Shown here: positions 3,202-64,000 of the stretch, piece by piece
Layout: each line of letters begins with the position of its first letter
How positions within the stretch are numbered: position 1 is the first letter of the stretch
DNA from: Amphiscolops sp. MND2022
Lineage: Eukaryota
Assembly: GCA_964187785.1 (NCBI GenBank)
Contig: OZ076412.1
Coordinates: forward strand, 59,830,001-59,894,000
Direction of reading: 5' to 3'
Length of the DNA: 64,000 nucleotides
Program-made: the position numbers and the translations under genes
Notes under the pieces: generated by a model
Databases searched by the model: none
Told to the model about the DNA's origin: nothing
What the model saw: the letters and a program-made list of their open reading frames with translations, nothing else

Positions 3202-3452
3202 ATTATTTTGGGATCACAGCTTAAGACCTACCATGTCTGGACCAATTGACAAGTTTTATAAAGTAGCTTTTGTGGGAAGGACTAAACTGAAACAGGCGCA
3301 GACATAGAAAAGCAAAACTGAGACATGATGTCTCAGTTTTGCTTTTCTATGTCTGCGCCTGTTTCAGTTTAGTCCTTCCCACAAAAGCTACTTTATAAAA
3401 CTTGTCAATTGGTCCAGACATGGTAGGTCTTAAGCTGTGATCCCAAAATAAT
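3202..3452. repeat. Perfect palindrome, 125-bp arms with a 1-nt spacer (G3327)
   Basis: 3202-3326 is the exact reverse complement of 3328-3452 when read base by base. Confidence 0.97.
3368..3422 (+). CDS. Candidate 55-nt internal exon (FSPSHKSYFIKLVNWSRH) of an unidentified gene
   Basis: Pyrimidine tract plus acceptor (ttttgcttttctatgtctgcgcctgtttcag), donor gtaggt, and only one open frame. Joins in phase to 8803-8825. Confidence 0.35.
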
Positions 3453-19999: not shown

Positions 20000-22150
20000 T
20001 TTCTTGTTGGGAACAAATTTGATTTTTTCATTCTTCTCCAGAAACTTCACGTGCTGTTAAAATCCAAGTATTTTGCCTTCTAGCATTGCGCCTAACTGAG
20101 CAAAGTTTCGTTGTCAGACTCTTAAGCGTTTTGCAGTTTCCGTTGCAAAACAATTGTATGCCTTTCCCAGACCTATCTCATGGGAATTATATTTTGTTCA
20201 AAATGCATACAATTGTGCGAATCCACTAGTTTTCAGATCTGAATAGGTATTGAGTTTCGTTACTTTCCCCGTTATTTTCTGTCTGTTAATCTAATCCATT
20301 GTGGCTTGAAGGTGTTCATTTATTCTCCAACCAAAAGCGTCTTGCAATAGTAAATGAAAAACTCCAAGGCCACTGTGACTCTTGTTTTGATTATCAGTGC
20401 AACCCAATTATCAGGAAAAGGTGAAAACGTAAAGGAAACACATTCAAATTTACGGAATAAGAAGTTTCTAGCAGTTTTCACGTCTGCAAATGACTTGAAA
20501 TTAGTGAACAGACTCTTACAGGTCCATGAAAGGAGTCGCACGTGAACGCTCTTGAACTGGAACGGGTATGCTTAATGTGAAGTAGTAACAAAGAAGAAGC
20601 TGTAACGTATATTTAAACCGCTAATATTATTTAGGACCAAACATATTAAACGATTGAAACACATTGCCCGGAATCAGTCCTTCTAATGATGACGATCTTC
20701 GTAGTACTTTCCGGGCTGTACATGCTACCAATGTCATGAATTAGTTTCACAAAACCAGCGTTCAAGTAAACTAAGAAATCTTGAGTCATTCTTAGGACTT
20801 GGGCTCAACCAAATTTGGAAAGCAAACAAAACTACGAGAAACAGGTGTATAAATCTGAGTTATGCAACAAAATTAACGCAATACAAAAGTAGGGACATTA
20901 GGAAGACTTTGTACATGTCCCCAAGAAGAAATACGCCCCAAAAAGAAGAACGCTTTTACAATATTACATGATCAATTGGTATCAAATTATCTTTTTGCCT
21001 TTTTGGTCAGATTTTTTGTGAAATGTAATACGGATGAGAAACGGACTTTTCATTTCTGCAAACATTTTACAATTCTCTCTCGATGCTTGCTGGTCACATG
21101 CTCAAATTACAAATGCATGTCATCTTATACCATGAATCCGCACCAACCAAAAAGCTCGTTTCATAGTTTCGTTATTGATATTTGTTACATGTGGATTTGT
21201 TTTGAAAAGGCGACACCTTAAAATTTTGTAGAACTTTTGGTCGAACTATTTTGGTCACTTCAGCTGTATCGAAAACAACACTGACGACAAGCCATGACTA
21301 TAGTCGACAGTTTTCTGAAGAAAAGCGCCGACTAAAAACGGAGATATTAAAAACCCAATTAATAACAACCGATATTAACAATTTCTGCTGTATCAAAAGT
21401 GTTCGAGAACGAGTTTTCAAAACGGATCGTTGAGTTTCTCGAGGACTCCAAACTACGGGGCCCGCATCTATCAAGAGTAAAAATTTCAACAACTGATGCT
21501 CTTCTTCATGCAACAGATAATAATCGATGTGATATTAATTTAAAAAACGTCATTGCGGCTGCCTTTTTGGAACTCGCAAAAGTGTTTGATTCGATCTCCC
21601 ACGAAATCCTTCTCCAGAAACATAATCAACGGAAGTTCACAGTAAGTGCTATTTCGACGGTTCGGAATTCTTTTGAAAAACCGGACGCATAAATTTGTTC
21701 TCGAAACTGCATCTTCAGATTTGATTTCGCTACATCAGGGTGTTCTACGGGGTACTATCTACCCTCTATGTTCAGCAAATACGTAAAATGTATGTGATAC
21801 GGTATTGCTAACCCATGCGAACTAGAACAGTATGCAGATGAAACGTTCAGTTTTGTCAATAGCAAGAAATTTGAGGATGCAATACATCTTTCAGTAAATA
21901 CAAAGATTTTAGTTCAAAAAAGTTTAGATATCGGCTATTGATAAAAAACTGATTTTATTGTTTTCTGCCGGAAACCCACTTCGCAGACCTCAAAAAATCC
22001 TGATTATTCTCTATGCCAAGTGGCAGTAGAAGTTACAAGTTTAGTGTGGCAGTTAGTGGAAGCAACAGCTTATAAAATCTGTCACGTCGTTGGTGTTGAA
22101 AAAAAGCCAGTGCTATAGTCTGCATTTGCTACGAAAACCGCTGACTAAAA
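20000..22150 (+). mobile_element. Second decayed CR1/Jockey-group LINE (RT core ~21290-21960)
   Basis: Reads KRIVEFLE, STTDALL, AFLELAKVFDSISHEILLQK, QGVLRGTIL (cf. QGSVLGPLL) and YADET. Boundaries are approximate. Confidence 0.75.
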
Positions 22151-29650: not shown

Positions 29651-30371
29651 TGTAACGTCAAGCTAGCAGGTACATGTTAGAGTCGGGACGATGTCCAGAT
29701 TGCCTGAACAGGAGACCGTTGCCTTAACACAACCTAGACACTAATTTTAGTCCCAAAGCGGTCTCCTAGGGGACTTTTCCGTTCCGCACGTCTCAGGAGA
29801 CTCCTCGAATGAGAGCTCCCTGGCAACGTGTCGGCACACTCAAAGTCCGGACACGTCCCACAGGCACGTAAAAACGTTCCTAAAGGTTCCTGCGGTCCTA
29901 TAGGCTCCTGAGGTCCAAAAACAGGGTTCAATCAAAGTACAATTTAATTAGTTGAATAACGTCTCAATCCACCAAAATAGGGATCTAGTAGATCCACCAT
30001 CATTGCCAATTTGCTAAACAACATGAAAGAATAATAAAGTTCACTGGAAATGCAAGATTCTGATCTTTTATGAAGTTCCCAGAGTATTCGGGGTGAACTA
30101 TTGTCGGTTTTTGATTCCTTTCCGGGTTTTCCAGGACATCTTCTAGATTAAACGGCAAACAACTGTGATTTTGGACGTTTCTTCTACCCAGTGATAGTAC
30201 ATCTTGTCTCCGGTTGGGTTTCGGGGGTTTGTTTGTGCGTTTTTTCCTTTTTTGCTTTTCAGAGACTTGCCAGGTCTGCCATTTTGAATGATTTCAGTTG
30301 ATATCGCAAACTTTTTGAATTTCAACGGAAGTTTCAAAAAACTTTTGCAACGTCTTTAGCTAGACGTTACA
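29651..30371 (-). repeat. 3' LTR (type A), 721 bp
   Basis: Ends TGTAACGTC...GACGTTACA. Collinear with 48566-49291. Confidence 0.9.
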
Positions 30372-30383
30372 CCCTCCCGGGCC
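30372..30383 (-). promoter_or_regulatory. Polypurine-tract-like primer site
   Basis: Minus strand reads ...GCCCGGGAGGG directly before the 3' LTR TGTAAC. Confidence 0.5.
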
Positions 30384-30897: not shown

Positions 30898-33800
30898 TCA
30901 GTGGCCGGGCGTTTCTGCAGCCGTGTTAGGGTCTTGCAGCTCGTCTTTTAGGGCCTGAGTGAACGTTTCAGATAGGGTCTGTTCTTGTGGATCGAGGTTG
31001 GTGAGCTCATACAACTCAGTGGCCTCGCTGGCAGTGGCCTCGCTGACAGTGGCCTCGCTGACCATGGCGATGAAAGATTCGGAAGGGGTCAAGCTGATCT
31101 GGTCAACTGCCTCTGTGTTTTCCTCTCCGGGGACTACCTGAGCCGCGGCGGGTTGGTCTGGTCTTCAGGCAACTATCGAAAGCGAACTGCCGCCGACAGA
31201 CACTTCCGAGTTTCCTGCTGCCCGCTGTTCTACGGTAGAGCCCATCGCGTTTAAGCCTGGGAGTTGGTCAGCAAATTGCTGGTGGCCATATCTGGTGAAG
31301 GTCTTTTTGTAAGTTTTCATAGCGGCTGCGTAGCTTTCGAACACGACTCCTCCTTCTCCTTCTCGCTGCTTAGCCAGCAAGACCAGCAATATATCCATTG
31401 CCATCTTCGGATTGCTGGGCATTTCATTGCTGATGGGGAGGGGTCTGAGGTCCAGTTCTTTAGCAGTCTTCGGGATAGTGATTATAAGTTGTTAGCATTG
31501 CTGGTGTATCATGAGGTCCACCACTGGGGGTGTGTTCCAGGTAGTGATAGCTGTCAAGATAGCTGCGGTTCTGTCGCGCGGCTCTGTCCTGGCGCAGTAA
31601 AGTTGTGAGGTGTCTAGGACGCTAGGATACTTTAACTGCTCGGTTGCTGCGCCTTGCCTACGTCCTCTCAGGCGTTGAAAGACAGTGGATAGGGTCTTCA
31701 GAGTCACTTCTTCGTTCCAGCTTGCAAAATCCTGCATAGTGCCAGTTTCAGGGCTTATTGGTGTATGCAGACAATCCACTGGGTGGTATTCCATCGACAT
31801 GGGAGGTTGCACCGCGCTCTGGCTTTGATTAGAGTGAGGAAGTTATACTTTGTCTGTTTTCGATTTTTGATGATGGTTTATGCCTTCGGGGGTCTTAAGT
31901 TGGCTATAGTCCGTACTAGCGCCCGGAGGCTAGTGTGTGTGGATATTTCTTCTGGGTCTAAGAAGTGTAAGATCGAAAGTGTGAGGGTGCTGGCTTCGAC
32001 TCGAAGTGGTTGTGAAGGGTAACGCACTGTCATGAATGGACCAAATTTTGGCCAAACAATGGGAGCGATCACCGGAATTAGATCTTCTGTTTCCACTAGC
32101 TTTAGGCTAGCCACCTGAGATGGGAAAAGAAAACCTGGCAGGTCATTTGCATCACACTTGGTCAACTGCGTGTCGTCAAGGGTGTGCATCTCACCCAATA
32201 CATTTACCCACACCGAATAGATCCAGATTAAGATAGCTTCAATGTTCGCTTACAGTTGGGCTTGCAGCTTCATTGCCCCAGCGGGGTCCAGTGTTTTCAA
32301 AATAGCTTGTAGCCAACCTCTTTGATTTTTCTTGGACACTAGGAAGCTGAATGAGGTGAAACCGGATTTGTCCACAACCATTTTTCAGACCATGTGTACC
32401 GGACCCTTATAAAATGAGCCCAGGTCAGCGGCCATCAAGTAGGCCAGCACTTCACTGGTCGTCTAGGCCACCTTCGCATTGGGCCATGCTGCGTACCCAG
32501 AACGGTGAGATATTATATAGTAAGATCGGAAATGGTATCCCGTGTCTCTCTGCCACTTGCGCCAGTGTCTCTTGCAACAATGCCCCGTGCCAAGATTGGT
32601 ACGAGTGCTGTGGAGTTGCCCGGTTCTCCTATGCTATTTTGCGGGCAAGCAGGACCAGCAGCACTGGCGTGGGAGATACCATAGTGGGTTGCAGGTCGAT
32701 GGCTTGGATGGCCACTGGGAAGACAGTGGATTCGCTTCGATTGCCTTTTATCTCTTCGATGGTCTTGGAGAGAGCTAGCAGATCTTTGGGAACTTGGGGT
32801 CATGTGTCTTCTCTCGTCGCGAGTTGATTCGTCTCTTCTTCCAAACCACAGGTTGTCCATGATGTTGGTTCTCTCAGCTGTATTTTGCCCGTCCACTTAG
32901 CGTACTCCGTTCTCATCGAAGGTGCGGTGTGCCATTTGCATAACGAATTCAAATGCTGTTAGATCATCGGCCATCAGTTGTGAGTTTCCTTGATAACCAG
33001 TGTATGCCTGTAAGGCTTTGGAGACTTCGGCTCGCAGGGCTGGGTACCCAGTTCTCACAGGGTCATTGCACTCACCCTGAGGCTGGGAGCCACGATAATA
33101 AAGTTCAATGACTGTGCGAAGGCGGCTTCTGTAACCAGGTACAAGAATTGTTGCAGTTGTCTCGGAAAATGAACATCTCCAAGAGCTGAAACGAAGAACA
33201 CCTCCACGGTCAGTCTCCTACCCTGAACTTGTCGTATTACCTTCCTCATAAAATGCACATATGCCATTACTTCTGCAGTCATCGTCTCCTCTTTTAATCG
33301 TCTCTTTTCTCCTTCGAAGTGCTTCAATGTACCTCTGACGGCCAAGTGGTCGATGACGTTGCTGAAGATAAGCAATGAGGGAAAGGGGATTGTCTCCGTG
33401 TAATTAGATGTTGGACCACAGACATTGCAGGTCACTTCTGCCATTTCTCCCAACGACGTACAGGGCAAGTTCATTACCCGCACGTCCATCAGCGTATAGT
33501 GCATGTTGGGCGTCGCTTTCATCGTGGAGTCGATGAAGAAGGCGATTCTTGTCTTCTGGAGCACATCTTTCCCGATGGGGAGAAATGTCGTCAAGTCTCT
33601 CGCATAGTCTCGATTGCTGATTAACTGTTCATCATAACTTCCTTGCCGTTGCTTCGCCAAGTTAACACTCGCAGGGTGTGGTTTCATAAGAGATGATCGA
33701 TCACGGTGTAACTCGCCTCTTACGCGTTCAAACCAGGGGGAATGCGGTGGGGTAGGTGCATTGGTTTCCATATCGGGCGGAGGTAGTGCATCCCAATAGA

Positions 33801-34934
33801 GGCTTTTCCAGAGTTCTCACGTTCTGCGGCTCTCCTTGGCTCGTGGCTATCTCAAACTTCTGACGGTTCGTCTCCGAATCTGAGATTCCTGAATGGGGAT
33901 CCCGTTGCTGAGGCACTGCGTCTTTTGCAGTAATATCATACTGTCGTGCCTCTGTCTGCGACAGGAGCTCCTTAGAGATTCTTACTCTTCTACCCTCCGG
34001 CTGTTGCGTGGGAGACGGAGTAGGACTTGTGCTTTGGGCGTCTGATTTGGTTAGCTCTCTTGCTATCTTCTTCTGTACTATCTGTTCCAACCTATTTTGC
34101 TGTTCTTTCTGCTTCAAGACATCCCTCATGTCTATTGGAGCCTGCGCCGCCTTCCACATCGCCTTTTGCTGCTTTTGTTGTTGTTGTTGTTGCAGTTGTG
34201 GATCCTCTTGGTACCCTATCAAGTGTAGGGGATCCTTTGAATCTGATGGCATCAGTGCGTCGTAGGAGTCTTGAAGCTCTGTTACACTCTTGGTCAAAGT
34301 TACGTTGTAAGGTTTGCGCACCAAAGCTGTCTTAGTGGAGTTTGTGTTTGAGGCTTCTGGTTGCTATTTACTTGTGTGTATCCCTTACCTTTCCCCCTGG
34401 AAAGAAGAAGGAAGCATGAGATCCGTGTTGAGCGGGGGGATGAACCTCACGCTGCTGGGGGCTGTGGAGAGTGGCGGGGTGAAAACTTGCGGAGGTATGG
34501 TGGGCTAGATGCACGTTATCTGTTGTGCGGGTGGCGTTGGCAAAGTTCCCCGAGGAACAGTGGTTGTGGCTTGTTGTCTCCTGGTGAATGGAAGCAGGAG
34601 TGGTTGGAGTTGCTCCATGGCATGCCTAACAGGTTCACCCAAGGTTTGGTGAGATCGGTAGTCATCGGAGTGATGGGTCAATTCATGTAAGCTCCAACTT
34701 CTGTTGTGAAGTTCTGCTATTGAGATGTGTAGCACCAAGTCTGGGAGAGCAGTCAGTGGCCACATTTGGGCAACAAGCAGGGCATTCCTGTTACCAGAGT
34801 AGGAGGTACTCCGATGACTAGTTTATTGCTGACACGACCAGCCTGATTTACGTTGTGCCTTGCTGGGTTGAGTCAGCGGAGCTGTTAGTCACTGTGGACT
34901 GGGCAGGCGTGAGGATGCGCGATGAATTGTCCAT
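30898..34934 (-). pseudogene. Accessory ORF-B (~1300 codons before decay): Q-rich/coiled region, SGNH-like domain (~33050-33550), unknown C-terminal part
   Basis: Consecutive same-strand ORF fragments 34848-35051, 34505-34765, 33728-34324, 33055-33771, 32513-32896, 31878-32213, 31492-31812, 31165-31422 and 30898-31092. ATG in ATCATGG context at 34934. Confidence 0.6.
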
Positions 34935-35229
34935 GATAAGATCAATAAAGGGTAGCACCTTGTAGTGGTTACTTTGATGGTGAAACTTCGTGGAGGAACA
35001 AGTGCCGCGCGGAAGCAGTGGGACAGGACTAAACTGAAAAACAATTGACAATTGAGGTTAAAACAATTTTTGTTAATTAGGATCCAAGACCAGCCCGCAA
35101 AAACTTAAAACGTGTTAATAAAAAGAAGACGATTCACACGATTAAAAGAAGCCCATCGGCCTCAATGTTTAAGGTTGCAAAGTGCTAGTGATGCGCTATT
35201 CAATTTGTGTTTTTTGTTGTTGCTTACAG

Positions 35230-36330
35230 TCGTGACAGAGGCGATAGATACAGAGACCCTGTCATGGAGGACTCACTCGATGTTCTTCTCTATAAAATGA
35301 TCTCTTAACATTGCATACCAAGCTGGTAGTATCTTAATTGATCGTTCTGGATTGTATACAGGAGAAAGAACTTTCGCAGTGCGATTTTGGCTAAGCTGGT
35401 GTCTCAGGTTGGTCAGGCACAGATGTAAAAATTCGTGCAACATTGGATGTTTATTGGAGGCTCTTGTGCACAACAGGAAGATTTCATTTTCCCAAGGTGC
35501 GGTTGGCGAGTTGGCCAGATGAACCGCCGTGCCTATGGCTTGTCTCAATCCGAATATTTCATCCTGTCCGTATTCTCGAATGACATAGCGGGTCACTGCT
35601 GAGTAAGAAACTAAATCTGCAGGACAACACAACACTGTGGTGCCAGAGGCTTGCCGAATGTCCGAGTTGGCATCGGATAACCATAGCAAATAGCTTGGTT
35701 TGGTTTCAGGCTGAGCTATTAGCCAATTTCCCGTGGCGTTGCTAGAATCATCAGCTGACTGTGGTGCTAGATGTTCGAAATTCGCGATCTAGATGTTCTG
35801 CGATCGTGCCATACCATACGACGCAAGGGCCGGTTGCCCATATTGGTGCAAGACCAGTCATGCACTATGGAGAGTGCTTCAAGCACCGTTGTTGGCTTCT
35901 CGGGCGTGTAAGTTTGCTGGTCTAGGATGCGTACTTTTGCTTGTCGGCAGAGAACGATCGCTATTAACTGCAACCAATGTTGACTGAAAAACTTTCCGCG
36001 GTAAATGTCTGCTAAAAAAACAAAGGGTGTCCTCAAACTCTACCACAGTGCATAGGTTTTCCAGGCAACTCAACAGCGTGGTGGGTGATATGGGTGTTAT
36101 TTCATCTAAGTATGTGACCAGTAGCCACCAACCCTGGGTAGGTGGGTATACATCTCCCGGAGCGTAGGCAACATGGTAATTTTCCCACAACTGGTGTGCT
36201 GGCTCCCAGTGTGCTGGCAGTGATGTAGCGGATCATCTCTGTTTTCCAATCTTCAGGGTCCATCTTATCGTGGCAACGGGGGTATGATGGCGGGTAGCGT
36301 GAATTCAAGTCCGCCTCGGTCATGTTGCGT
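35230..36330 (-). pseudogene. Accessory ORF-A: TARG1/OARD1 (Poa1p)-like macrodomain(s)
   Basis: ORF 35273-35689 follows the TARG1 residue pattern end to end. The frameshifted fragments 36102-36323, 35879-36190 and 35767-36036 repeat the same pattern more weakly. Confidence 0.55.
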
Positions 36331-37429
36331 TCATACCTTGGAACTGTAGTTGGGACGGTGTGAGGGTGAACTGTTGTGGATCGCTTTCACCGTGGTCTCA
36401 AGTGGTGGCACCACTCCTGGGTCAACGCTAGTGTAGGTTTTCTCCACTGGTATGATAATGTGATGCGCCATCTGCGGGAGTTCCTGTCTTCTGGTCTGGA
36501 TCGTCAAGAAATTGTGTTGGGGGTGTTCAAGCGCTCGCGCAATTTAGGGTTCACGGGCATGTATGGCTTCTCCGCGGGCCATTCGAAGGTCCGGTGGTTC
36601 ACTCGTGACTAGATGGACACAACTACAGTTACGGGAGCCGCTGCTTCCAAATCTCTACCGTGGTGCCATAATTGCTCCGAACTGATAGCGGGGCGCTTGC
36701 GACGAAATGGCCCGTTCGGCATCTTGTTTGTTTGGTGACGGTCTCTCCGGGATTTCGAGTGAGGTCATGGCTAGTTCCAGAGTTCGAGACGGAGCTCTTG
36801 CGCTTGCCCTTGTTCTTAAGCCTCTTCTTGACCGGGTAGTTGTCCCTCTGGAAGACACGGTGGTTCTGCTTAAGGAACTGCTTGCGACTCGTGTTCGAAG
36901 TACTGCGTGGTGTCGGAACTTGCGCCGGGTTTGGGTCCTGGGCTCTGCCATCTCTATCAGTGTCTTGTTGAGGCTCGATTTCTAGAGACGGGTCTGGGCC
37001 TACTGAGCTTCCAGCTTGGGAACTGATCAGGGGAAGTTGCTCAGAGTGTCAGTCGAGGACGAGTTAGATAACAGCTGAGGTGATTTTCCAATGATGATGG
37101 TAATAGACTCCTTGTTAGTGCCTCTGGCTGAATCACCTCTTGGTCTGAGAACAGCGGCTCCAAGTCGCCCATTTCGGGAAAGACTACTTGCTGGGCGAGA
37201 TCTGGAATTGGTTGTTCTGACATTTTCCGATCTGACTCCGAGTCGGAGGGGTAACCAAAGTGACTGAACCTCCTGAGTATTCCTCGCTCAAGAGCCTTTT
37301 GTGTGTGAGTCTGGATTGTTCGTGGGGGACCGGTTGGAAGGGTTCCGACTCGAACGATGCTTCTGGCAGTTGTTCTTGCAAAAAAGGGTCGCGGGATCTA
37401 TCTGATGTAATTTCTTCGTTGATTTCTTT

Positions 37430-38700
37430 CACATAGGGTCAGCTATGATGGCTACATTCTGGTCTAACCCAAAAGGTTGATGCGTGGTCAAGTCCCATGG
37501 CGCAGGGACATGCTTCAAGCGCTCAAAGTGTCTAGTACGTAAAATCGTCCATCCTGCAGTACGTCGGTGACTTGGTGGGGCCCGCGCCGTTTGCGAATTA
37601 GCTTGTGTGTGTCTAATTTTTGTATTATGTGGCAAAAGACCCAAACAGCATCACCAACAGCGTGCGTTTTTGACTTCAGGTAATTGTCGAATTTTTGTTT
37701 TTGACCCAGCTGGGCCTGGTGGGTGTTTCTGGGAACGAGCTCTTCTGTTTATTGTTGTCGGGCAAAAAAAACCTCGACAGCGAATTCACGGTATATGAAC
37801 GAAAGTGGGATAGATATCTCAGCCCCATGCCGAGGCATGTATGGCAAGAATCCGATGGTTGCATGGCAGTTAGAATTGTAGGCTCCCAGTACTCCATCTA
37901 TGTGCTCATCCCAGTCCTGCATTTTGCGGGAAGTGTACACTCGGGGCAGGGTGAGCAGTGTCCTGATTTGTCGTTCCACAAGGCCATTGCCACGTGGATG
38001 AGCTGGGGTGGAGGTTACCTTGGTGACATTGGAGGCCTTTATTAGTTCTTGGGCTATTCATGCAGTGAAGTTGGTCGCATTGTCGGGTTTCATTCTTGCC
38101 GGTGTGCCATGCCGAGCAAACCACTAGTTGAGAAGTATATTGGCGGTTGTCTGAGCATCGTACGCGTCGTGGGCGCAAGTGATGCCTTCTGCAAATTTAG
38201 TGAAGTGATCGATGATGACTAGCAATCCCGTGTTTCCAGATTCAGACTTGCACAGATTCAGGTGGTCAAATTGGACAAGGTTGTTGAAGTTGCTACTGTT
38301 TATAATTTTCAAGGGATAGCAGGGGTTCCAAGCGGGATGTTTCGTTTGCTGGCATGTCAAGCAGTGCTTCATGTGGTTGACTACATCGCGCTTGATACCT
38401 GGCCAGGTGTGGCGTTCTTGTATCCTTGCCAGCACTTTAGCCACACCTTGTTGTCCTGACTCATCGTAAGCCCTGTACAAGAACTCACGCTGGTAACGTC
38501 GAGGCATGACAATCATGCACGGTCGTACGTGCATTACGCGTTGCTGCGAGGTAAAATTGACACACAAAATTTCATCTGGGTTCAGGAACAGCAGGTCTTT
38601 CTTCTGGTGGTAGTACCGCTTTGCGAAACCCTCGGGGAATACTGTGTCGTCCAATGTTTCTTCTTTCATTAATGTCTTCAATGCTAGGAGATAGACATCA
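37430..38700 (-). pseudogene. Gypsy integrase (HHCC zinc finger, rve core, C-terminal region)
   Basis: HTWPGIKRDVVNHMKHCLTCQQTK; LVQFDHL...GLLVIIDHFTKFAE; WDEHIDGVLGAYNSNCHATIGFLPY. Confidence 0.9.
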
Positions 38701-38989
38701 AGGTTCTGAGCCAGCCGTTAGTCTCTCAGGCCAAGCTGGGTCGATTGGTGCTCTTGCAGTTCCGTTCCTATCAATCGGAGGGCGTCCGCTTGTTGCTAGC
38801 ATGGTGCAGGTAGCCTCCTTAGTGCGCTCGGCCGTGTCAAAACGTGCCGGCGGAATAACGGTTGGTACATTAAGGATAGGCCTTTCATCTTCGAAGGTCG
38901 TAGGCCTTGATTCCCACTGCTAGGGATGTGGTACTAGGTCTGGTTTTCAGTCGGCTCTTGCTTCGTTTTTCCCTTATAGCACCCGGAAC

Positions 38990-39600
38990 TGAGCTCTCAC
39001 TCCGCTGGAAGTTCTGGGTGGTTTGGTATTGCTCGCCCGTGCTTATCTATGTATGGTACAATGGGAAGGTCCTCATAGTCTTGTTGAGATATGAAGATGA
39101 ATCCCTTGCTTCTTTCTGGCAGTTTCTCGAGGGTTTCGTCACAATGGACATAGTCATTGGTCCTCTTGCTCAGTCCTTCGGCATTCCTGTGTTGTGTGCG
39201 GGTTCGATGGACGGTCTTGAAGTGGTACAGGTCGAGGCGAGCAATCAAACATCCAATCATGCTTTGATCGATTGAATATGATTTCAGCCAGGAGAGGGCT
39301 TACTTATCTACGCGTAGCGTGAATTCTTGACTTGCGAGATACGAATGAAATTTTTCGATGAAGTAGAAAATGGCATACATTTCCAGTTTCGGGGCGCCAT
39401 AGTTCAGTTGTGTTCGAGTCAGTGACTTGCTGCCGTAAATGATGGGACGAAGGATGGTCTTTCCATTGTGTTCTTGTTCCTGTTGTAGGATCGCGGCTAT
39501 TGCTACTGCACTGGCATCCGTATCTAACACGAATCGTCCCTCCTCATTTGGGGCAGCCAAAGCGGTGGCTTGAGCTAATGCTTGTTTCACTGAATCGAAA
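38990..39600 (-). pseudogene. Gypsy RNase H
   Basis: FVLDTDASAVAIAAILQQ, YGSKSLTRTQLNYG, KLEMYAI, EFTLRVD, HRNAEGLSKR. Confidence 0.9.
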
Positions 39601-39699
39601 GCCGTCTGGTGGTTCTCGTTCCAAAAGAATTGCTAATTCTTTCGAAGTAGTTCCTGCATGGGTTGCACTTTGGAAATGAATGAAGTCACGATAGTAGTT

Positions 39700-40330
39700 C
39701 GCGAACACCAGGAAATTTTGGAGCTCAAGGCTTTCAGCTTTTGTATCGAGGAGGCATCCATTCTTGTGTTTTGGCCACTGCCTCAGGGTCTGGCTTTATT
39801 CCTTCTGTGGAGACTACTCTTCCGAAGTACTTTGTTTCTGGGCGCATAAAGTCACACTTTTCCGCTCGCATCTTAAAACCAGCTTTTCGGAGGCACTCGA
39901 ACACTTCTTTTATCCTCACTACCTGAGTCACGATTCTCTCCGTTGCAATGACGATGTCGTCGATGTATGCCCTGACGACATTCCCGTGTCGCTGTTGGAT
40001 TCTTTGTAAGGCTCTGGTGATGGAGCGCCGAAAGGTTCCTGAGGCATTGCATAGCCCAAAGAGCATGCGCCGCCATTCGAACATGCCTGTTTTACAGACC
40101 AACGCTGTCTTTTTGTGGTCACGTTTCTTGAGGGGGATTTGCCAGAAAGCCCATGCCAGGCGATGTTGGTGAAGATTTTGGCATTCCCAATCCGAGAGAG
40201 GCTCTCATCAATCCTGGGGAGGGGAAATGCGTCTTTCACTTTCACATCGTTCAGCGGCCTGAAGTCACAACAGAAGCGAAGTTCGCCTGTCTTCCTCTTC
40301 ACCATGACTATGGCCAATAGGAGGGTTGGG
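39700..40330 (-). pseudogene. Gypsy reverse transcriptase
   Basis: LRFCCDFRPLN, DAFPLPRIDE, EWRRMLFGLCNASGTF, YIDDIVI (39957-39968), KCDF. Confidence 0.95.
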
Positions 40331-41299
40331 TCAGTCCGAGGGCAAGCAAGTTTTGTACCTCCTGGTTGGCTTTGGCTGCTTTGTCCGGGGACATGCGCCT
40401 GGCTCCTTCTCGGTGAGGCACCACCTCTGGTTCTAATTCAATTCTGTTTTGCTACTTTACAGCGACCTATGTCGGCTTTGTTTTTCATGAAAAGGTCCTC
40501 GTACTCATTTATGATATCTTGCAACTTTTCTCTCGCCCCTTCCCCCCAAGAAGAAAAGACAGAAGAGACGTCAGTACCGGCTATTGCTTTCAGCAATTGT
40601 GGATCTGTCCTTCTTTTTATCTCAGTTTCTGACAATCGTACCTCTGACTTCTCAGTTGTAGATAAAATGTTCCGTGCAAAAAAACGAAATTCTGAACTAT
40701 TGTCCAAATCTAAGTCACAGTGCACTCGTTTTAAAAACTCAACTGGAAGCTTCAAAGCATCGCTTTTTTCTTTAATAGGAACAGAATTGAAGACAAAATT
40801 GGTGAGCACTTCTCTTCTGATGAGAGTTTTTCTCTTTATTCTCACCCTTCCATCCGCAGTTCGGTTTCTCAGGGCTAACAAATTTACATCGTCTTCTCCC
40901 ACTGAAGTGTATCTTCTGAAACAAATAATAAATTGGAGGTTTGGTTCCATGGGTGTACAATTATATTGCGAAAATAAAATGAGTTTGGTTGCTGAGTAAT
41001 AATCTTAGCACTCAATATTTCCCGTTCGAAAGGCCCTAGAATGGTTTCCTCGGCAGCAACGACAAACGATGGCTTTTGGTCACTAACCTCGTGAACTGCC
41101 CTGAAGATTCTAGGCAATTTCGGGTCTCTGATGGTTAATCGCATGGCCGTGAGGTCAACACGCACATTGTATGTGCGCAGGAAGATCCGTCCGAGTAGGA
41201 AGTCCTCGGCGCCGATGTGGTTTGATATGACTATGAAGTTGGTTTTTAGCGTGTGTCCTCCAAGCTGGAAGCAGACCTCCTCAGCAATGCCAATGTTAT

Positions 41300-41612
41300 T
41301 GCTGCTCGTGCCGTTGGCCGCGTACAGTTGGCCTTCGTAAGGTTAGATGCCTAGCGCATGTGGATCGGCTACTTTCTGATAGACGCTCAGCCATAGTATC
41401 GACACGCCTGATCCCGTGTCGACCATCCCAAACAATGGGATTGGTTCTTGAAGGGTGTTGCCGAAGGCAACCAACAGCGAGGCTCTTTCATCTATGCGAA
41501 CTTCCCCCGTTGCATCCTGTGCGCCGATGTTGTAGCACTTCAATTCTTGTCGGCCAAGGTATAATCCCTGCGGAAAATGTCCTTCCAGGACTACTACTGC
41601 GTCGAATTTCAT
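41300..41612 (-). pseudogene. Retropepsin aspartic protease
   Basis: LFGMVDTGSGVSIL, followed downstream by FLLGR in a shifted frame. Confidence 0.8.
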
Positions 41613-42029
41613 ATCGACACCGTCAACGTTAACAGCTATCGGAACTGGAGCGGTTGTCTTGACCTTCTCCAGGGGCGCAGTTTTGTCTCATCTTCTCTCA
41701 TGAAGTGGGGGAGAGGCCTGGAGGCCACGTCGTACTTCGTGTTTCTGCACACTTCTTGTTTCAGTTGGGCTAAGGTTAGGTCTTGGCGGTGTTGTTGTTC
41801 TGCTGATAGCATCAGGTGGATTGATATCATCGTTTCAGTGCAGTTTGGTGCGGGGGCTTCCAGTGTGGTTAGGACTTGCATTTTGCCACAGGTCGTGATG
41901 GTCCCCCAGCTTCCGCCACCGCGATCACTCGTATCTGGTTGTCGGATTCCATGTTTTCCACATGTGGGCTCATTGGGGCGTACCACGCTGCTCTCACTTG
42001 TTCTACTTGCCTAGTGGTTTCAGGCGCTA

Positions 42030-44094
42030 TACATTCGGATGCCGAATGCCTCGTTTGTCCACAATTGATGTAGAAGGCTACGGTCCCATGAATCGGCAGC
42101 GTTGCTAAGTATGTTCGTGGTTTACTCCATGTGGCTTCGAGGGTCAGGTCTACCTGCCAGATGGGCTGGTGTGGCACGAGTTGACTTGCTGTGGTATCGG
42201 TTTGCGGGCTTTGTCCTTCAGGGGACAATCTATCACGAAATGTGATGGGTCACCACAATTGAAACACGCTCGCTGGTGCTGTTGTCGATAAGTCACTGGC
42301 CGCGGGGGTACCTGCTGCGCTTTGGGTACCGGCGGAGGAGCGATTGGTTGTTGAACCTGATTGGGTTGGTTTTGCAGGGGAGCTGGCGGTTGCAGGGCTG
42401 GCAAAAAATGATCAGTGCGAGCGGAGCCACGCATACGCAGGTGTTGCTGCATTGTGATTCTCAACGCTTCCACTGTGTGTGGTTCCTCAGCGTATTTTTC
42501 TTGCGCATACATCAGGGCTATGTTGCGTTTCAGTTCAAAGTTACGGACTCCGTCAATAAACGGTTGCATAATTTCATGTCGTCGCACCGCTACTTCTTCA
42601 TTCGGGAAGCCTTGGCTACGCAAGCCTTCCAGGTCATCGAGATACTGCATGTAGTCCTCCTCACTAAGTTGGTTGCGGGTTCGAAATTGCGGTTGCTTGT
42701 GGATTTTGCTGGATCCCGTTCCGGCGCGCTAGCAGTGCTAAGACTTTCTCATCGGTATCTCTTTCCGCTTCGGGTTTGTTGGTAAGGTAGTCCCTCGCTT
42801 CATGCTCCAGATACTCGATTATTGTCCAGGCCTTGTCGAGAGGAGTTGCCTTGGCATGCGCTTTTTCCAGCTGGCGTTTCCTCAACATCATCCACCCTTC
42901 GGCATTTCCATCTCTCGCACCTCGATACTTCTCGATGCTTAGTTTTTTGCTTCTTTGACCGCTAGCAGCGGATCCAAAGCCTTGGAAATGACCGTCGAGA
43001 TTGCTTCGGCTGGGTTGTGTCCTGGGCGTGTCTGGAGAAGCGTCCTTCATTTCAACTGCGTCTTCTGTTTCACCTTGCTCTGGATCTAGGTTCCTTTTGG
43101 CATTAACTTTCCGCTGCGTGCTGGTAGACGCTGGTTTTGGAATGATGTCCCTGGAGGTCAGCCTAGGTGGATGAGTGATCGCACTGGTAAGCGCTATCTG
43201 GTATCGCATTTTTGTGTAGTCATACCGTTCGCCGCAGAGTAGTAATCTCCGGTATTGTATGCCCCGTGTGTAAAAGGGTCGAATGAGGAAACGTCGGTCA
43301 TGGGGTCCGTCCCCGCACGCGCGACTCTGCGTGCATCACTCTCGCCATTTTGCTCGCATTCGTCGAATCTTTTTTGTACGTCGCGGGCGGTTTCAATTTA
43401 GGTAGTGTCACCTTCTCTCCACTAGGTTGCGCTATCTTTCTGTATGTGACCTGTGTTGGTGGGGGACCAGCACAGGTAGAGTGCATGTTCGCCAGCTTGA
43501 ACGCCAGAGGCGCTGAAGCCGCACGGGCTGGCGCAGCTGCCGTTTGTGACACTACTGTTTTCACTTCCTGTGTCAGATCTTGCATCATCGTCATCAGATC
43601 TATCATACGATTGTTTGCTTTGGAGTCTCGGCGCTGCATTATGTCCGACATTAACTTCAGGCGTTCGTCAGCCTGCCGGTTCTTTTCCTTCATGATTGCC
43701 GACATTTGGGACATGCGCGTGGAAGCCAAATTTCACGTTGCTTGATAGAGGCCATACACGCTTCTTATTCCCCCTGGCTCCTACGCCCGCCGGCCTGTAC
43801 CTCCGGGAGTCCTTTTCCCATCTCCTCCATGTCTCTCATATATACGTCTGCCCGCATGGCGTGCTCGTTATTCTTGCGCGCTAACCGCGACTGCACCTGC
43901 GTTAGCTGGGCCAACTTGTTTCTAAAGTCTTCCCTTATGGCTTTGGATTCCTTTATACCTCTCAAGATGGTTGAGTCAGGAGCCGTGGTACTGCCCTCTC
44001 TAGACCCCCGGAGTGCAATCTGATTGTTATTGTTCCTTGCTGTCTCAGCGGGTAGTCGTTTTTGACCGGCTTGCCTGTTTGATGTTTTACCCAC
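42030..44094 (-). pseudogene. Gag-like polyprotein with CCHC zinc knuckles
   Basis: Fragments 43765-44094, 43298-43729, 42664-43209 and 42150-42650. Knuckle CFNCGDPSHFVIDC at ~42225-42267 and a damaged second knuckle YINCGQTRHSASEC. Confidence 0.8.
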
Positions 44095-45090
44095 TTCCTT
44101 GCCTGTTTAATGGTTTACCCACTCCTTCCCTAGTCAAAAAGTGAACTAAAGACAAACAGAATTGGAAGTTTTAGAAGTTCTTCATCTAATGCTCAGACTA
44201 ACTACAGTAGCACTTCGTTCTGGAGCATTGCCTACTAGATTCCGCAAATTTCTGGGTCGAAAATAGCTGGCTAACTAAAAAAGACCTCTTGATTACATGC
44301 ACGGGTGCCAATCACCACTAAGCAAAACGGAAACGTTGCTTCTCCACTAATTGGAGATGGTTATGCTACGACGAGATTCGAGATTTGTTTTTTTTTAATT
44401 ATAACTACTGAAAACTACTAAATAAGACTACAAGCAGAGCTAATTTACGTTTTGTCCAGCCGTAGGCTATGCGATTGGAGCTAGAAAAGAGGTTATAGCG
44501 CTTCTAACAAATTTTTGGGTGATCAGTTGAGTAATCACGACGCTTGCACCTTGAGCGTGTTCTACGTTACTCGCACTGCCCCACTGCCCTTTGGTTAAAG
44601 AGCACAAGAGGGGTTACTATTGAAAGGGGACTCTGGGGACGGACCCTGGGGGTGAAAAGATACTAGGACACTTGCTGCTGAGAGATTTGTACAATTCCGA
44701 TCGTGATACGAACAAGGGAAACACTGTTTTCTGCACACAGAGAAACTACTGTACTAGATTGTATGTTTCGAGACGCGCTGCGTTTCTATTCTAGCTTTTC
44801 AAACGTGCCCTTAAACGCGTGCTCGCTTTTGCACGGACCTCTTTGGTTGGAGTATGCGTGAACGCAACTAAAAGTTGGCACTTTAACGACTTTGACAGCC
44901 GCCGAGAGGAAAAACACTATTTCACGTCTTTCACTACTACGTCTCAAAACATTTTTCTACCGGACCCAAGATCTTAGGGCTAACTTAGCTCTACTAAATG
45001 TGCTTCAGGAAGACGTGCTATGAATGACTGGTATAATAATGGGGTCGTTTGAGGCCTCGCCTGCGATTACGCTTGCGAAAATTGTGTGAT

Positions 45091-45620
45091 TTGTCATAAA
45101 ATTTCACAAAATCAACAACTTTTTCATCAATATGCACGTCTGGCAAAAGTGAAAATCACTTCTAGAGCTAGTAGCGACCGGTAATTTTCACAGAGTATAC
45201 TACAGGGGCTGAATCGTGAGAAACTGAACAGGAGACCGTTGCCTTAACCCAACCTAGACCTTAGTTTTTATTCCCAAAGCGGTCTGATTTATCGTAAAAT
45301 TCCACAAAAACAACAATTTTTGCATCAATATGCACGTCTGGCAAAAGTGAAAATCACTTTTAGAGCTAGTAGCGACCAGTATTTTTCACAGAGTATAGTA
45401 CAGGGGCTGAATCATGAGAAACTGAACAGGAGGCCGTTGCCTTAACCCAACCTAGACCTTAGTTTTTATTCCCAAAGCGGGCTGATTTATCGTAAATTTT
45501 CAAAAATCAACAATTTTTTCATCAATATGCACGTCTGAGAAAAGTGAAAATCAATTCTAGAACTAGTAGCGACCTTTAAATTTCACAGAGTATACTACAG
45601 GGGCTGAATCGTGGAAAAAT
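45091..45620. repeat. ~198-bp tandem repeat, about 2.7 copies, in the element leader
   Basis: aatatgcacgtctg recurs at 45129, 45327 and 45524. The junctions between copies contain the LTR fragment ctgaacagga(g)..cgttgccttaacccaacctagac..cccaaagcgg. Confidence 0.85.
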
Positions 45621-45964
45621 TACCTGATCGCGCTAAGATTGACTGTACGTGACTTACGGTCGCTTGACAATGTTGTTAGAAAAATCGACTATGTTGTGAA
45701 ACCCACAGAAATTTATCAAACTCGCCTTCCGGGTGTCCTAGCCACCTGACATGTTGTATGTGAGCGTGAATTTTGCCTAGGTAACAGAAAACCAGAATGG
45801 CGGGGTGCCCGGTGCTATATTCCGCAGTCCGAGTTGACAAAACTATGATGTACACTTGATGTCACTTTTTTGGGTCTGAATTCACAAAAATATCAATTTC
45901 TCGAAGTTGGACAGTAGCAAGCTGCTCAAAATGCCTGAATCGTTCCGGGATCTAGTTCCGTGCG

Positions 45965-46414
45965 TACGACGTAGGGTAGGAGGCAACCAATCGGAGGAAG
46001 GAGGATCGGTCGTGAAGGACGTCACTCCGTTTTCACAGCTGGTGGAAAGCTTCACACTTCGTCCTCGCGGTACTGATACATTGTCAACATACTGAAATAA
46101 AGCTACAGAACCCTTTAAAACTAGTTCCGGATAGGCCGGATTAATTTTTTCAACAGGTCTGACATTATCAAAATGGGTACACTGTCTGCAACCGTCTATT
46201 TTTGGTTCCAGACCTCAGAAACATGCAGGAAACGCAGGAAAAACACTAGTACAAAACCAGAAAGGTTAAAAAAAGGCAAAAAAAACGATTTAGGACTCTC
46301 CAGAAAGTTTTTCTAGATCCGGACCTAGCAGTGCCGGAAAGCAGGAAAATCTCCAAGTATGACGCAATAATGGAAAAAAAGTCCCTTGAGGGGCGCCATA
46401 AAAACTATTCCAGA
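45965..46414 (-). repeat. Copy 2 of the ~450-bp post-LTR leader (copy 1 at ~48115-48565)
   Basis: Collinear similarity from taggaggcaac..gatcggtcgtgaaggacgtcac to ggggcgccataaaaactattccaga. Confidence 0.85.
46381..46398 (-). promoter_or_regulatory. PBS-like site, copy 2
   Basis: TGGCGCCCCTCAAGGGAC matches 14/18 to the recalled tRNA-Lys PBS TGGCGCCCGAACAGGGAC. Lies 16 nt from the LTR end. Confidence 0.45.
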
Positions 46415-47128: not shown

Positions 47129-48531
47129 CCACTAACGCACTTTTTGCGGTCTACACGATAGTGTAATTTGGTTTGAGCTGCTCCTTCTAGGAGAGATTTT
47201 GACCTGTTCCAGAAACGCTACTCCAATGTTCCAAAAATGTCGCGACAACAAAACGTTCTTGGCTATTTCTCGCTAACTTCCGGTCAGAATTACTCGCGGT
47301 TTTCTGCGTTTGAAACGTTATACTCTATACTAACAGAAAAATGGCAACCGTAACTTGGCAGGTTCCAAATAAAGTCTCTCAAAAGTTTTTCAAGTTGTAC
47401 TTTTTACAATCTCGGAACAGTACTGAAAATCCGTATTTTGACCAAGAAATTTTTATTTCTTAGTTCTGAGACATTCTAAATGGACTTAGCAGTAGTGTAG
47501 GAGGGTGTAATAACTTTATTTAGGGAAGTGGGGCTTTTTCAACAATTATTTTTGATGTTATATCTCTCATGTCTATGGTGTCCTCTCTTCAGGTCTATGT
47601 ACACAAAAGAAAACCAAGAGTTAAAGTTTCAGTTTATATTGGGGAAGGCCAGGAAACGTCCGTCCTAGCAATAGCCTGTTGTACTACCAGGCTCGCGAAT
47701 AAGGCTTCTGGGCTGCTCTGGAAGCTTGCAAACAAACACCCAAGGCTTCGCCCTCACCAAATTGGGTAATTCAGGCCGAATTTGGTGTTTTTTCAAACAA
47801 AAATCGCTGAATTGTTCAATGTTATCACAATTTAGTCAAACAAAATGTTTTGTTCCTGACCTACCAGGTCCGGTGGACTTTTGTTTTAGTATTCCCACTG
47901 GCTGTACCCTTTCCTACAAAATTTTGACTTTCAAAATCTATAGAATCGACTTTTGCGCTATATAGGGCAGTATAATCAAAGTAGTTGCACTCAAATTTTG
48001 TAACAACTATTCTGAATACCCGCAGGGTAATTTTCATAGTTAGTTTACGTGGTTATAAGCCTGGGAATATGCTTTTTAGGCCACTAATTATGCAAAATGG
48101 CCATGTAATCCGGTTGACGTGGGGTAGGAGGCAACATATCGCAGGAAAGAAGATCGGTCGTGAAGGACGTCACACCGTCATCTCAGCTTGTGGAAACTTC
48201 ACACTGCATCCTCGCGGTCCGGAGACATTGCCAACATACTGAAATAAAGCTACAGAACCCTTTACAACCAGTTTCGGATGGATAGGCCGGATTACCATTT
48301 TTAGCGGTCTAATATAGGCAAAAGGGGTACACTGTCTGCAACAGTCTATTTTTTGTTCCAGACCTCGGAAGCATGCACGAAACGCAGGAAAAACACTAGT
48401 ACAAAGCCAGTGAGGCTATCAAAAGGCAATGAAAACAATCTAGGACTCTCGAGAAAATTTTCCTAGAATTCGGACCTGACAGGGCCTGAAAGCAGGAAAA
48501 CCTCCAAGTATGACGCAAGAATGGATAAAAT

Positions 48532-48549
48532 GTCCCTTGCGGGGCGCCA
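48532..48549 (-). promoter_or_regulatory. PBS-like site, copy 1
   Basis: TGGCGCCCCGCAAGGGAC, 16 nt downstream of the LTR end at 48566. Confidence 0.45.
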
Positions 48550-48565
48550 TAAAAACTATTCCAGA

Positions 48566-49291
48566 TGTAACGCCAAGCTAGCAGCTACATCTTAGAGACG
48601 GGACAATGCCCAGACTGCCTGAACAGGAGACCGTTGCCTTAACACAACCTAGACACTAGTTTTTAGTCCCAAAGCGGTCTCCTAGGGGACTTTTCAGTAC
48701 TTTCCGCACGTCTCAGGAGACTCCTCGTATGAGAGCTCCGTGGCCACGTGCCGGCACACTCAAACTCCTGACACGTCGCACAAGCACGTAAAAACGTTCC
48801 TAAAGGTTCCTGTGGTCCTACAGACTCGGGAGGTCCAAAAACGGGGGTTCAGCTAAAGTACAGTTCAATTAGATGTATAACGCCTAAATCCACCAAAATA
48901 GGGATCTAGTAGATTCACCATCATTGCCAATCTGCTAAACAACATGGATTAATATCAAATTTCACTGGAAATAGCACATTCTGATGTTTTTTGAAGTTTC
49001 CAGAGTTCTCTGGGTGAACCATTGTCGGTTTTTGATTCCTTTCCGGGTTTTTCAGGCAATCTTCTAGATTAAACGGCACACACCTGTGATTTTGGACGTT
49101 TCTTCGCTCCAGGGTTAGTATATCTCGTCTCCGGGTGGGTTTTGGAGTTTTTGAGCGTTTTTTCCTGCTTTTGCTTTTCAGGGACCTGCCAGGTCGGCCA
49201 TTTCGAATGATCTTACTTGATATTGCACACTTTTTGAAGTTCAACGAAATTTTCAAAAAAACTTTTGCAACGTCGTTTGCTGGACGCTACA
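48566..49291 (-). repeat. 5' LTR (type A), 726 bp
   Basis: TGTAACGCC...GACGCTACA. Homologous to 29651-30371, with 7 substitutions in the first 62 nt. Confidence 0.9.
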
Positions 49292-53949: not shown

Positions 53950-54950
53950 GTTTGCCTTTTTGTTGTTTTGGAAAAATCTGCGTTTTAAAAACTTGAACTA
54001 TACTTCAAGCTCTTCGAATCATCTTTTCCTAGTGAAGAGTTCCTCGGTTTCGCTTGAAAAAAACTTGAGCTCCAGTTCAGCGAGATAAGTACAATGCTGA
54101 GTTACCAACCCGTGTCTTTATACAGAATCCAAATCCTTGCAATTTATCACGTTTCATCATAAATCTTTCTCCGTTCTCAGTGATCATTGGTCTGACTCCG
54201 GCAAACTTCATTGTGCTTGCCTCATCTCGGCTACACAGGCCGACCTGATTTTTTTGCTTTCGTACCCCACCTACTTGAAATTGAAGGATTGTCTAATTGA
54301 TATGTACTGTGGGCTAACTGATTTCTCTTCGGCAATTTTGTCTGCTAGACCACCTTTCGGTTCTTGACGTCTCGCTAACGTGCTTATTTCTTTCGTTGTT
54401 TCCTTTCGTTGTTTCCTCATCGAGATCGATGCTTCAGCTATTATTAATTACTGCAGCTTCAAACTGCTCGAGCCATTTGTACCAACCTTAAGTCTTTCCA
54501 CTGCGGCCTTTTTCCTAAAATGGCGACCCCCAAACCTGCTATCAATACATTGTACCAAAAATGTTGTAGGAAAAAGATACTTTCTTCGCATGCATAACAG
54601 AAACACAAAACAGTTCGTTTGTTTTAAAACTGAATTGTGAAATTGTCATAGACGAAACTGGATTTGTAAATTCAAGCATCAGAACAAGCGACTTTATTTG
54701 ACAGGTTGTTGGCAACAAAATACAAAGTGTGAAAAAGAATTTCAAGTGCGCCAACGCTCTATCGCAATATTCAACAGCGTTCATCAGTTTTTGAGAAATT
54801 TGAGATTCATCCAAATACTAAAGAGAAAAAAAGTACTCAAATAGAGTAAAGCAACACCAAAAACAGTAAAACACTCATGACCCAACTGAAAAAAGATAGT
54901 GGAACACACAACCGATACTTATAACAAAACTGCCAAAAATGGTGTTCTCT
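53950..54950 (-). pseudogene. BEL/Pao gag-like fragment (opposite orientation to the next element)
   Basis: Minus strand reads GWYKWLEQFEAAVINN (cf. WxxFWDQFxAAVxxN), preceded by a coiled-coil-like segment. Confidence 0.45.
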
Positions 54951-63873: not shown

Positions 63874-64000
63874 TCCTCTCCGGGCCGTAGTTTGTCGTCC
63901 TCGGCAAACGAAAGGGTGTTCATACCCAGAGGGTAATTGCGATAATGGGAATCGGCTGAATAGCCAGACAAAATTAATTCTATCGTTTTTGTTTCATTTT

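Follow-up and report, generated by a model that had tools for sequence, protein, structure and literature searches.

Location and reading frame of the accessory open reading frame

The window analysed here is a stretch of 64,000 nt from Amphiscolops sp. MND2022 (GenBank assembly GCA_964187785.1, contig OZ076412.1, positions 59,830,001 to 59,894,000 of the forward strand), which carries a decayed Ty3/Gypsy retrotransposon on its minus strand. Between the integrase and the 3′ long terminal repeat (LTR) of this element lies a large accessory open reading frame (ORF), and the subject of this study is a domain of its product that has a predicted SGNH fold and very probably lacks the canonical catalytic triad. 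A preliminary description of the window had placed a segment of this region in the second accessory ORF of a Gypsy element, as a catalytically degenerate SGNH/GDSL-hydrolase-like module, next to a macrodomain. The location within a Gypsy element was confirmed, as reverse transcriptase, RNase H and integrase were found in the Ty3/Gypsy order between LTRs (Table 1). Profile matches on pol were obtained for RVT_1 (E 5.9e-21), RT_RNaseH_2 (E 7.2e-29) and Integrase_H2C2 (E 3.7e-14); rve_3 (E 5.8e-4) stayed under its cut-off.

Every motif quoted in the preliminary description (VRVMNLPCTSLGEMAEVT, PSLLIFSNVIDHL, EVMAYVHFMRKVIRQVQG, LQQFLYLVTEAAFAQSLNFIIV, TRIAFFIDST and VEVFFVS) was found within the minus-strand frame 33055-33816, which comprises 253 codons from stop to stop. 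Among 1.84 billion representatives, 78 relatives of this frame were detected at E ≤ 0.001 with identities down to 26%, and 13 longer relative proteins share 54-74% identity with it, so the frame is not open by chance. It does not represent a separate accessory ORF, as had been assumed, and belongs to a larger ORF of about 1400 codons: using tblastn with four of the longer relatives (P0007, P0018, P0058 and P0013), positions 35051-30901 were covered by seven successive frame segments containing stops. The start ATG at 34934 is common to the relatives and the stop lies at 30900, about 530 nt ahead of the purine run and the 3′ LTR. The strand is that of pol, and the base composition of the accessory ORF (A.29, C.27, G.23, T.20) resembles that of pol (A.30, C.25, G.23, T.22).

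A T-rich tract followed by CAG upstream of the start codon may serve as a splice acceptor, as for ORFs in env position, and the accessory ORF would then probably be translated from a spliced subgenomic RNA. In four relatives (P0007, P0018, P0027 and P0028) the in-frame translation of the acceptor-like stretch is F-Q-F-S-P, ahead of the common Met, and the codons between both points diverge among these proteins.

Table 1. Features of the Ty3/Gypsy element and its accessory ORF in the window
Feature	Position	Strand	Remarks
3′ LTR, TGTAACG...GTTACA	29651..30371	-	preceded by a short purine run, 30372-30378
Whole accessory ORF, decayed	30898..34934	-	about 1400 codons in open relatives; delimited by tblastn with P0007, P0018, P0058, P0013
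Conserved, mostly helical C-terminal region	31250..33000	-	about 550 residues, kept in four lineages
Conserved proline-rich hydrophobic 19-mer	32025..32081	-	within the best-conserved C-terminal block
Predicted SGNH-fold domain	33000..33740	-	corresponds to P0063 residues ~98-352, 65% identity to the window frame
Block V region, frame-broken in the window copy	33040..33075	-	Arg-Pro at the His-Pro position in open relatives
Block III N-x-x-D-H, Asn at oxyanion position	33346..33360	-	conserved columns
Block I Asp-Ser, Ser at nucleophile position	33526..33531	-	conserved columns and structural register
Small conserved N-terminal domain	34630..34845	-	island of P0007 ~91-163 in three lineages
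Putative splice acceptor, T-rich tract and CAG	35034..35046	-	100 nt upstream of the ATG
Macrodomain candidate of the preliminary description	35273..35788	-	no library support
Decayed pol: reverse transcriptase, RNase H, integrase	37752..40204	-	Ty3/Gypsy order
5′ LTR or LTR of a sister copy	48566..49291	-	5′ region partly duplicated

Relatives and conserved architecture

The open relatives of the accessory ORF are 1277-1439 residues long, and the clusters of relatives, drawn wholly from ENA, comprise 51, 118, 172, 210, 342 and 581 members. The SGNH domain is preserved together with the region behind it in at least four lineages, the identities to P0007-like proteins being 47-49% for P0013-like proteins, about 30% for P0153-like proteins and 27-31% for P0184. 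The architecture of a small N-terminal domain, a loose linker, the SGNH domain and a long helical region is conserved across four lineages. The N-terminal island was also found in P0140 (E 5e-16 to 8e-20) and gave no family match; the linker that follows it is poorly conserved. The C-terminal region had no match in Pfam, NCBIfam or PDB sequence searches. Its predicted local distance difference test (pLDDT) values in the AlphaFold2 model of P0063 are mostly below 50, with about 50-80 for residues 490-570 and 890-945, and it was looked up structurally only as part of this model, so that the structural null for it is barely informative.

The hydropathy scan of the accessory ORF gave no signal peptide, in agreement with the preliminary description, the N-terminal hydropathy being at most 0.54. 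The claim that there is no transmembrane helix was borne out at the C-terminus, which is polar, and has to be modified for the full ORF, which contains one internal conserved hydrophobic 19-mer rich in proline. This segment is the top Kyte-Doolittle peak in all seven long relatives (1.83-2.28) and reaches 1.62 in P0184. The hallmarks of a retroviral-type Env, namely a signal peptide and a C-terminal transmembrane anchor, were thus absent by the same scan.

A few further observations concern the C-terminal region. In P0071 it is present twice in tandem inside a single frame of 1402 residues. A helix-turn-helix-like spacing was seen at P0007 ~828-870 (window ~32500-32620) with moderate pLDDT and Myb_Rap1 at E 0.09-0.18; the Myb_Rap1 match (E ≥ 0.12 in 8 of 82 rows) was regarded as no better than chance. 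A likeness of one C-terminal helix to nucleoproteins of negative-strand viruses was dropped, being absent in P0153 and without a Pfam hit.

Prediction of the SGNH fold

For the analysis of the domain an alignment of 82 proteins was used, consisting of 75 of 181 proteins that passed the redundancy and coverage filters, minus five, plus twelve long or distant ones. The five proteins left out were the tandem duplicate P0071 and the frameshift-garbled P0108, P0114, P0123 and P0147. With this alignment the natural relative P0063, the residue numbering of which is used throughout, was modelled by AlphaFold2. Block means of pLDDT were 77-98 over residues 101-370 and mostly below 50 elsewhere. The model shows a three-layer alpha/beta arrangement with five parallel strands predicted at residues 166-170, 187-191, 223-227, 280-284 and 313-315. 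In window coordinates, an N-terminal helical extension (~33550-33740) is followed by the five-stranded core and the last helix (~33000-33550). The extension reaches beyond the segment of the preliminary description and is covered by the best structure matches.

The comparison of the model with 48,161 chains by VIA-align, for which a chance level of Z 7-8 is stated, gave 53 chains at Z ≥ 8, the top rows being SGNH proteins with a model span of 119-356. The top match was the platelet-activating factor (PAF) acetylhydrolase 1bwp (Z 12.0, root-mean-square deviation (rmsd) 3.9, 182 residues aligned), followed by 3p94 (Z 11.8, rmsd 3.9, 181 aligned). In a second structural comparison the PAF-acetylhydrolase 1es9 reached Z 12.1 and TesA (1ivn) Z 10.4. 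Most of the best 50 VIA-align rows are titled GDSL/SGNH esterases, and the remaining ones, such as phage tail proteins, we take to have the SGNH fold as well. The esterase of ZfL2-1 (4C1B) was outside the best 50 rows listed in both comparisons. Moreover, the conserved motifs of the family are located where strands 1-4 end and just ahead of the last helix. On the basis of this model we consider the SGNH fold proposed in the preliminary description practically certain.

Residues at the active-site positions

The residue register was derived by combining the aligned end points of the structural matches with a published table of SGNH blocks (Table 2 of PMC10792757). In block I, D171 (59 of 64 rows), S172 (60 of 64) and T173 (59 of 64) are conserved, so the Ser motif noted earlier is retained. 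The residue ahead of Asp-Ser is V, M, I or F and not Gly. S172 falls on the nucleophile in six of the seven structures whose alignment begins at strand 1, 1vjg being off by 2. Block II reads (M/L)-P-(C/L), with C in 41, L in 20, F in 3 and Y in 2 of 69 rows at the position where Gly is usual. This variable position parallels M-P-G of 1YZF; the oxyanion Gly is lacking, and the backbone amide may still serve the oxyanion hole. Block III has the context x-x-N-x-x-D-H instead of G-x-N-D, with N228 in 56 of 63, D231 in 56 of 62 and H232 in 57 of 62 rows, and the Asp-His after the Asn has no counterpart in canonical SGNH enzymes.

Just ahead of the last helix, at block V, R329 (40 of 44 rows) and P330 (44 of 45) take the place of His-Pro. 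In 6 of 11 structures (1es9, 1ivn, 3dc7, 3bzw, 1esc and 3skv) the catalytic His is the counterpart of R329, and residue 331 is likewise not His. A His at 329 was found in one row only, the decayed fragment P0099, and a Cys in one other decayed fragment; the decay of a CpG in an Arg codon would explain both. The acid position three residues before 329 is variable, and 1 of 41 rows has a D/E-x-x-H in the vicinity of block V. Arg-Pro is present in all 32 open relatives of at least 1340 residues, many of which are near-identical. Additionally, among the 23 rows below 36% identity the conserved residues were S in 18 of 19, N in 20 of 21, D and H in 21 of 21, R in 12 of 13 and P in 13 of 13.

The frame 33055-33816 terminates precisely at block V in the window copy, so the residue at the His position can be read from the open relatives and not from the window itself. 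No D-x-x-H was present in this frame, as the preliminary description had stated, and due to the frame break this absence has a local cause in addition to the family-wide one. Arg-Pro in place of His-Pro throughout the family, together with the lack of a conserved acid, makes the degeneracy proposed earlier a trait of the family and not a product of decay. That the canonical triad is absent from the family is accordingly regarded as highly probable.

Proposed function and alternative explanations

We propose, with a probability of about 0.55, that the SGNH domain of this large third ORF in env position is an anion-binding pseudo-esterase that would target the protein, most likely to membranes. 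A Ser without general base would not be activated in the usual way and would be a poor nucleophile; hydrolysis by the ZfL2-1 esterase is abolished by loss of its His (PMC3905857). The former oxyanion hole, formed by Ser, Asn and backbone amides, would form together with the Arg a pocket for a phosphate or carboxylate group. Several SGNH structures have sulfate, phosphate or acetate among their ligands (PMC10792757). Ser, Asn and Arg are kept across 70% divergence, which indicates that the pocket is under selection. The domain would therefore bind and not hydrolyse, and such a non-catalytic binder appears likely. By analogy with ZfL2-1 the ligand could be the head group of an acidic phospholipid, which is the leading candidate because ZfL2-1 binds such lipids and a conserved hydrophobic segment lies downstream; if the domain is a non-catalytic binder, the chances that a lipid is the ligand are roughly even. 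The domain would then tether the protein, and hence the RNA-protein particle of the element, to a cellular membrane, perhaps aided by the hydrophobic segment. As there is no signal peptide, any contact with a membrane would be made from the cytoplasmic side.

Several observations weigh against this reading, beginning with the fold itself. Foldseek against PDB and BFVD gave no match at E ≤ 0.001, although SGNH proteins dominate both lists. No sequence profile was significant, the best being Lipase_GDSL_2 with E 0.27 in 1 of 82 rows, and hhalign of the domain profile to TesA alone gave a probability of 0.1. Sequence searches with the domain were blank in Pfam, PDB, PHROGs, PADLOC and NCBIfam, and the Atlas returned leads below 0.9 only, the second of them a cluster with Lipase_GDSL on 41% of its members. 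A single-sequence AlphaFold2 model found no SGNH protein in the top 50, with a best Z of 5.7. These results would suit a generic alpha/beta arrangement, which we nevertheless hold to be extremely improbable and largely refuted: the single-sequence model has a pLDDT of just 35, whereas the alignment-based model lies well over chance with SGNH-type proteins filling its list, and the conserved motifs sit where an SGNH fold would have them. As to the pocket, R329 is off by 2 in 5 of the 11 structures, where the alignment runs past the helix, and the end points used for the register hide gaps and give no residue pairs. The domain is mildly basic, with an isoelectric point (pI) of 8.3-9.3 in eight long relatives and 7.7 and 5.6 in two distant fragments, compared with 10.8 for the lipid-binding ZfL2-1 esterase, and the proline-rich hydrophobic segment may be a buried core helix. 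Moreover, no target-site duplication was found at the outer LTR ends (the left end is flanked by GCTAT and the right one by TCGAA), and no genomic locus of a relative was found in viral contigs, metagenome contigs or GTDB genomes. The linkage of the accessory ORF to Gypsy elements is thus drawn from the window copy, besides a weak match of the distant P0115 to the sequence behind the integrase (E 0.005, 1 of 186 proteins tested); from these two points and the copy number of the relatives, we infer that the relatives also reside in Gypsy elements. A separate mobile unit or passenger inserted into the window copy would account for the lack of placed relatives, the missing duplication and the rearranged 5′ region. 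It is improbable in view of the shared strand, the pol-like composition and the end of the ORF shortly before the purine run and LTR; in addition, no flanking terminal repeats are among the repeats listed, the ORF has no transposase or reverse transcriptase of its own, hundreds of copies require a carrier, and P0115 holds a piece resembling the post-integrase tail.

The conserved Ser next to an invariant Asp-His, both also retained in the distant rows, is in turn a point against a pure binder and would fit a rewired, active hydrolase or acyltransferase, in which the Ser is activated by the His of N-x-x-D-H, or by one supplied from elsewhere in the protein or from a second copy of it, and the Arg holds an anionic substrate. 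Rearranged and two-chain triads are known, and some SGNH enzymes such as 1VJG tolerate a residue other than Gly at block II (PMC10792757). All enzyme rows consulted in the block table have the block V His, however, only the non-enzyme OSK being without it, and the structural Asp commonly borne by the helix after block III could account for Asp231 without catalysis (PMC10792757), so that we consider a rewired enzyme unlikely. OSK itself suggests another role, in which the domain is an RNA-binding pseudo-hydrolase that serves as a granule scaffold for the element RNA or protects it from silencing by the host, with a phosphate of the RNA backbone held in the Arg pocket. The OSK domain of Oskar (5A4A) is an RNA-binding non-enzyme with SGNH fold that matches the model, N-terminal extension included (Z 8.7, rmsd 5.6, 168 aligned), and the long poorly conserved linker and the lack of a signal peptide would agree with such a role. 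OSK ranks only 39th, though, under many enzymes; it has lost the Ser, which the accessory-ORF family keeps, along with Asn and His (PMC10792757); it belongs to a host gene and not to a retroelement ORF; and the net charge of the domain is just +2 to +8. We rate this role slightly lower than the rewired enzyme. More doubtful still is a non-viral substitute for Env, in which a lipid-docking pseudo-site and a membrane-inserting, proline-kinked segment would carry particles between cells; it would work without signal peptide or fusion glycoprotein and would involve an undescribed helical domain. A catalytic arrangement new to the SGNH fold, with the Ser served by the block III His and the Arg used for the substrate, has about the same standing.

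Comparison with known systems

The accessory set of the element had been called unusual, but SGNH domains in the third ORF of Gypsy-like LTR elements have already been published. Rodriguez et al. 2017 described GDSL/SGNH ORF3s with intact catalytic residues in Vesta LTR retrotransposons of bdelloid rotifers, and proposed a membrane-related auxiliary role, with no activity shown for LTR elements (PMC5408684). As in the window, the domain of Vesta lies in the third ORF, in env position, and has no transmembrane anchor (PMC5408684). The Vesta ORF, however, is a stand-alone ORF of about 1.3 kb with S, G, N and H intact (PMC5408684), whereas the accessory ORF described here, compared by description only, measures about 4.2 kb, carries an Arg at the His position and has two further conserved regions. 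GDSL derivatives without catalytic residues occur in Athena-L Terminons and are in this respect alike, but these are Penelope-like and not LTR elements, and their domains were grouped with PC-esterases (PMC5408684). Extra SGNH ORFs at the retrotransposon 3′ end, with unproven function, are also found in amphibian Ngaro elements, which differ from Ty3/Gypsy in being tyrosine-recombinase elements with split direct repeats (bioRxiv 10.1101/2021.08.05.455354).

The ORF1p esterase of ZfL2-1, from the CR1/L2/RTEX non-LTR elements (PDB 4C1B; Schneider et al. 2013), is likewise an SGNH fold within a retroelement protein; it is a slow enzyme that binds acidic phospholipids (PMC3905857). Its full Ser-His-Asp triad, its pI of 10.8 and its Gag-like position have no equivalent in the accessory-ORF family, and at the position of the transposon-specific H191, four residues before N195 (PMC3905857), the family has L in 40, V in 11, I in 7 and F in 3 of 66 rows. 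The best structural matches over extension and core, PAF-acetylhydrolase Ib and GDSL/sialate O-acetylesterases of Bacteroides (1ES9, 1BWP, 3P94 and 7PZG), are by contrast active enzymes with D-x-x-H, at 8-12% sequence identity and rmsd 3.6-3.9.

Unrelated retroelements thus repeatedly capture SGNH domains, for which lipid handling, membrane targeting or particle assembly have been proposed (PMC5408684), and the membrane idea is repeated in PMC6431247. In the literature searched, which excluded most subscription journals and Repbase, no ORF of this size and build was found, nor any family of SGNH proteins in which Arg occupies the His position. Capture of SGNH domains by Gypsy-like elements is known; what was not found described is the conserved His-to-Arg form in a protein of 1400 residues that includes a large region without match and stays open in a high-copy family. 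A high-copy lineage has here retained the fold together with the Ser/Asn pocket over about 70% divergence, and an Arg has become fixed in place of the catalytic His. Should the domain be inactive, such elements would need binding and not hydrolysis. In addition, the about 550 conserved residues behind the domain represent a protein region without match in the libraries searched.

Macrodomain candidate and post-integrase region

The other half of the supposed accessory set, a macrodomain upstream of the SGNH domain, found no support in seven tests of one decayed sequence. The candidate had no match in Pfam, PDB, Atlas, PHROGs, PADLOC or NCBIfam, scored -2.0 bits with a profile of 15 phage Tk.4-type macrodomains, under the best of 1000 shuffles, and gave a blank result in tblastn against phages. 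Its likeness to TARG1-type macrodomains is one seen by eye. The sequence may instead be the end of a long Pol tail behind the integrase and not a separate ORF. About 2.3 kb of coding-like sequence at 35270-37600 on the minus strand is probably this tail; near 36604-36705 (minus strand) it has a basic stretch together with a Cys-containing motif that is also present in P0115. A decayed frame at 35879-36232 (minus strand), without any library hit, resembles by eye in its middle the strand-helix part of 35273-35788, and both are possibly a tandem pair of one domain. Macrodomain ORFs have been reported in fish endogenous retroviruses (PMC4977317).

Further features of the element and the window

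The LTRs at 29651-30371 and 48566-49291 share 86.8% identity across 729 nt, and the missing target-site duplication suggests that the window copy is old or recombined. The block of about 31000-44000 has mostly 45-53% GC compared with about 36-37% in the flanks, the host being an AT-rich eukaryote. A stretch of the TGGCGCCC type, which resembles a primer-binding site for tRNA-Lys, lies on the minus strand at 46380-46414 and at 48531-48565, in both cases 16 nt inward of the LTR end; it is present twice because the LTR end and the leader are duplicated at a spacing of about 2150 nt. The 5′ leader contains 198-nt tandem repeats at 45025-45970, each with a piece of LTR sequence. At 63169-63929 lies a further LTR of this family, which has diverged more (73-74% identity) and runs towards the end of the window. 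Apart from the element, the near-perfect direct repeats at 54277-57449, which measure 637 nt (99.8%) and 355 nt (100%), point to a recent duplication or an assembly artefact, an inverted repeat of 125 nt, perfect and with 1 nt between its arms, is found at 3202-3452, and a fragment at 21366-21692 (plus strand) resembles by eye a non-LTR reverse transcriptase.

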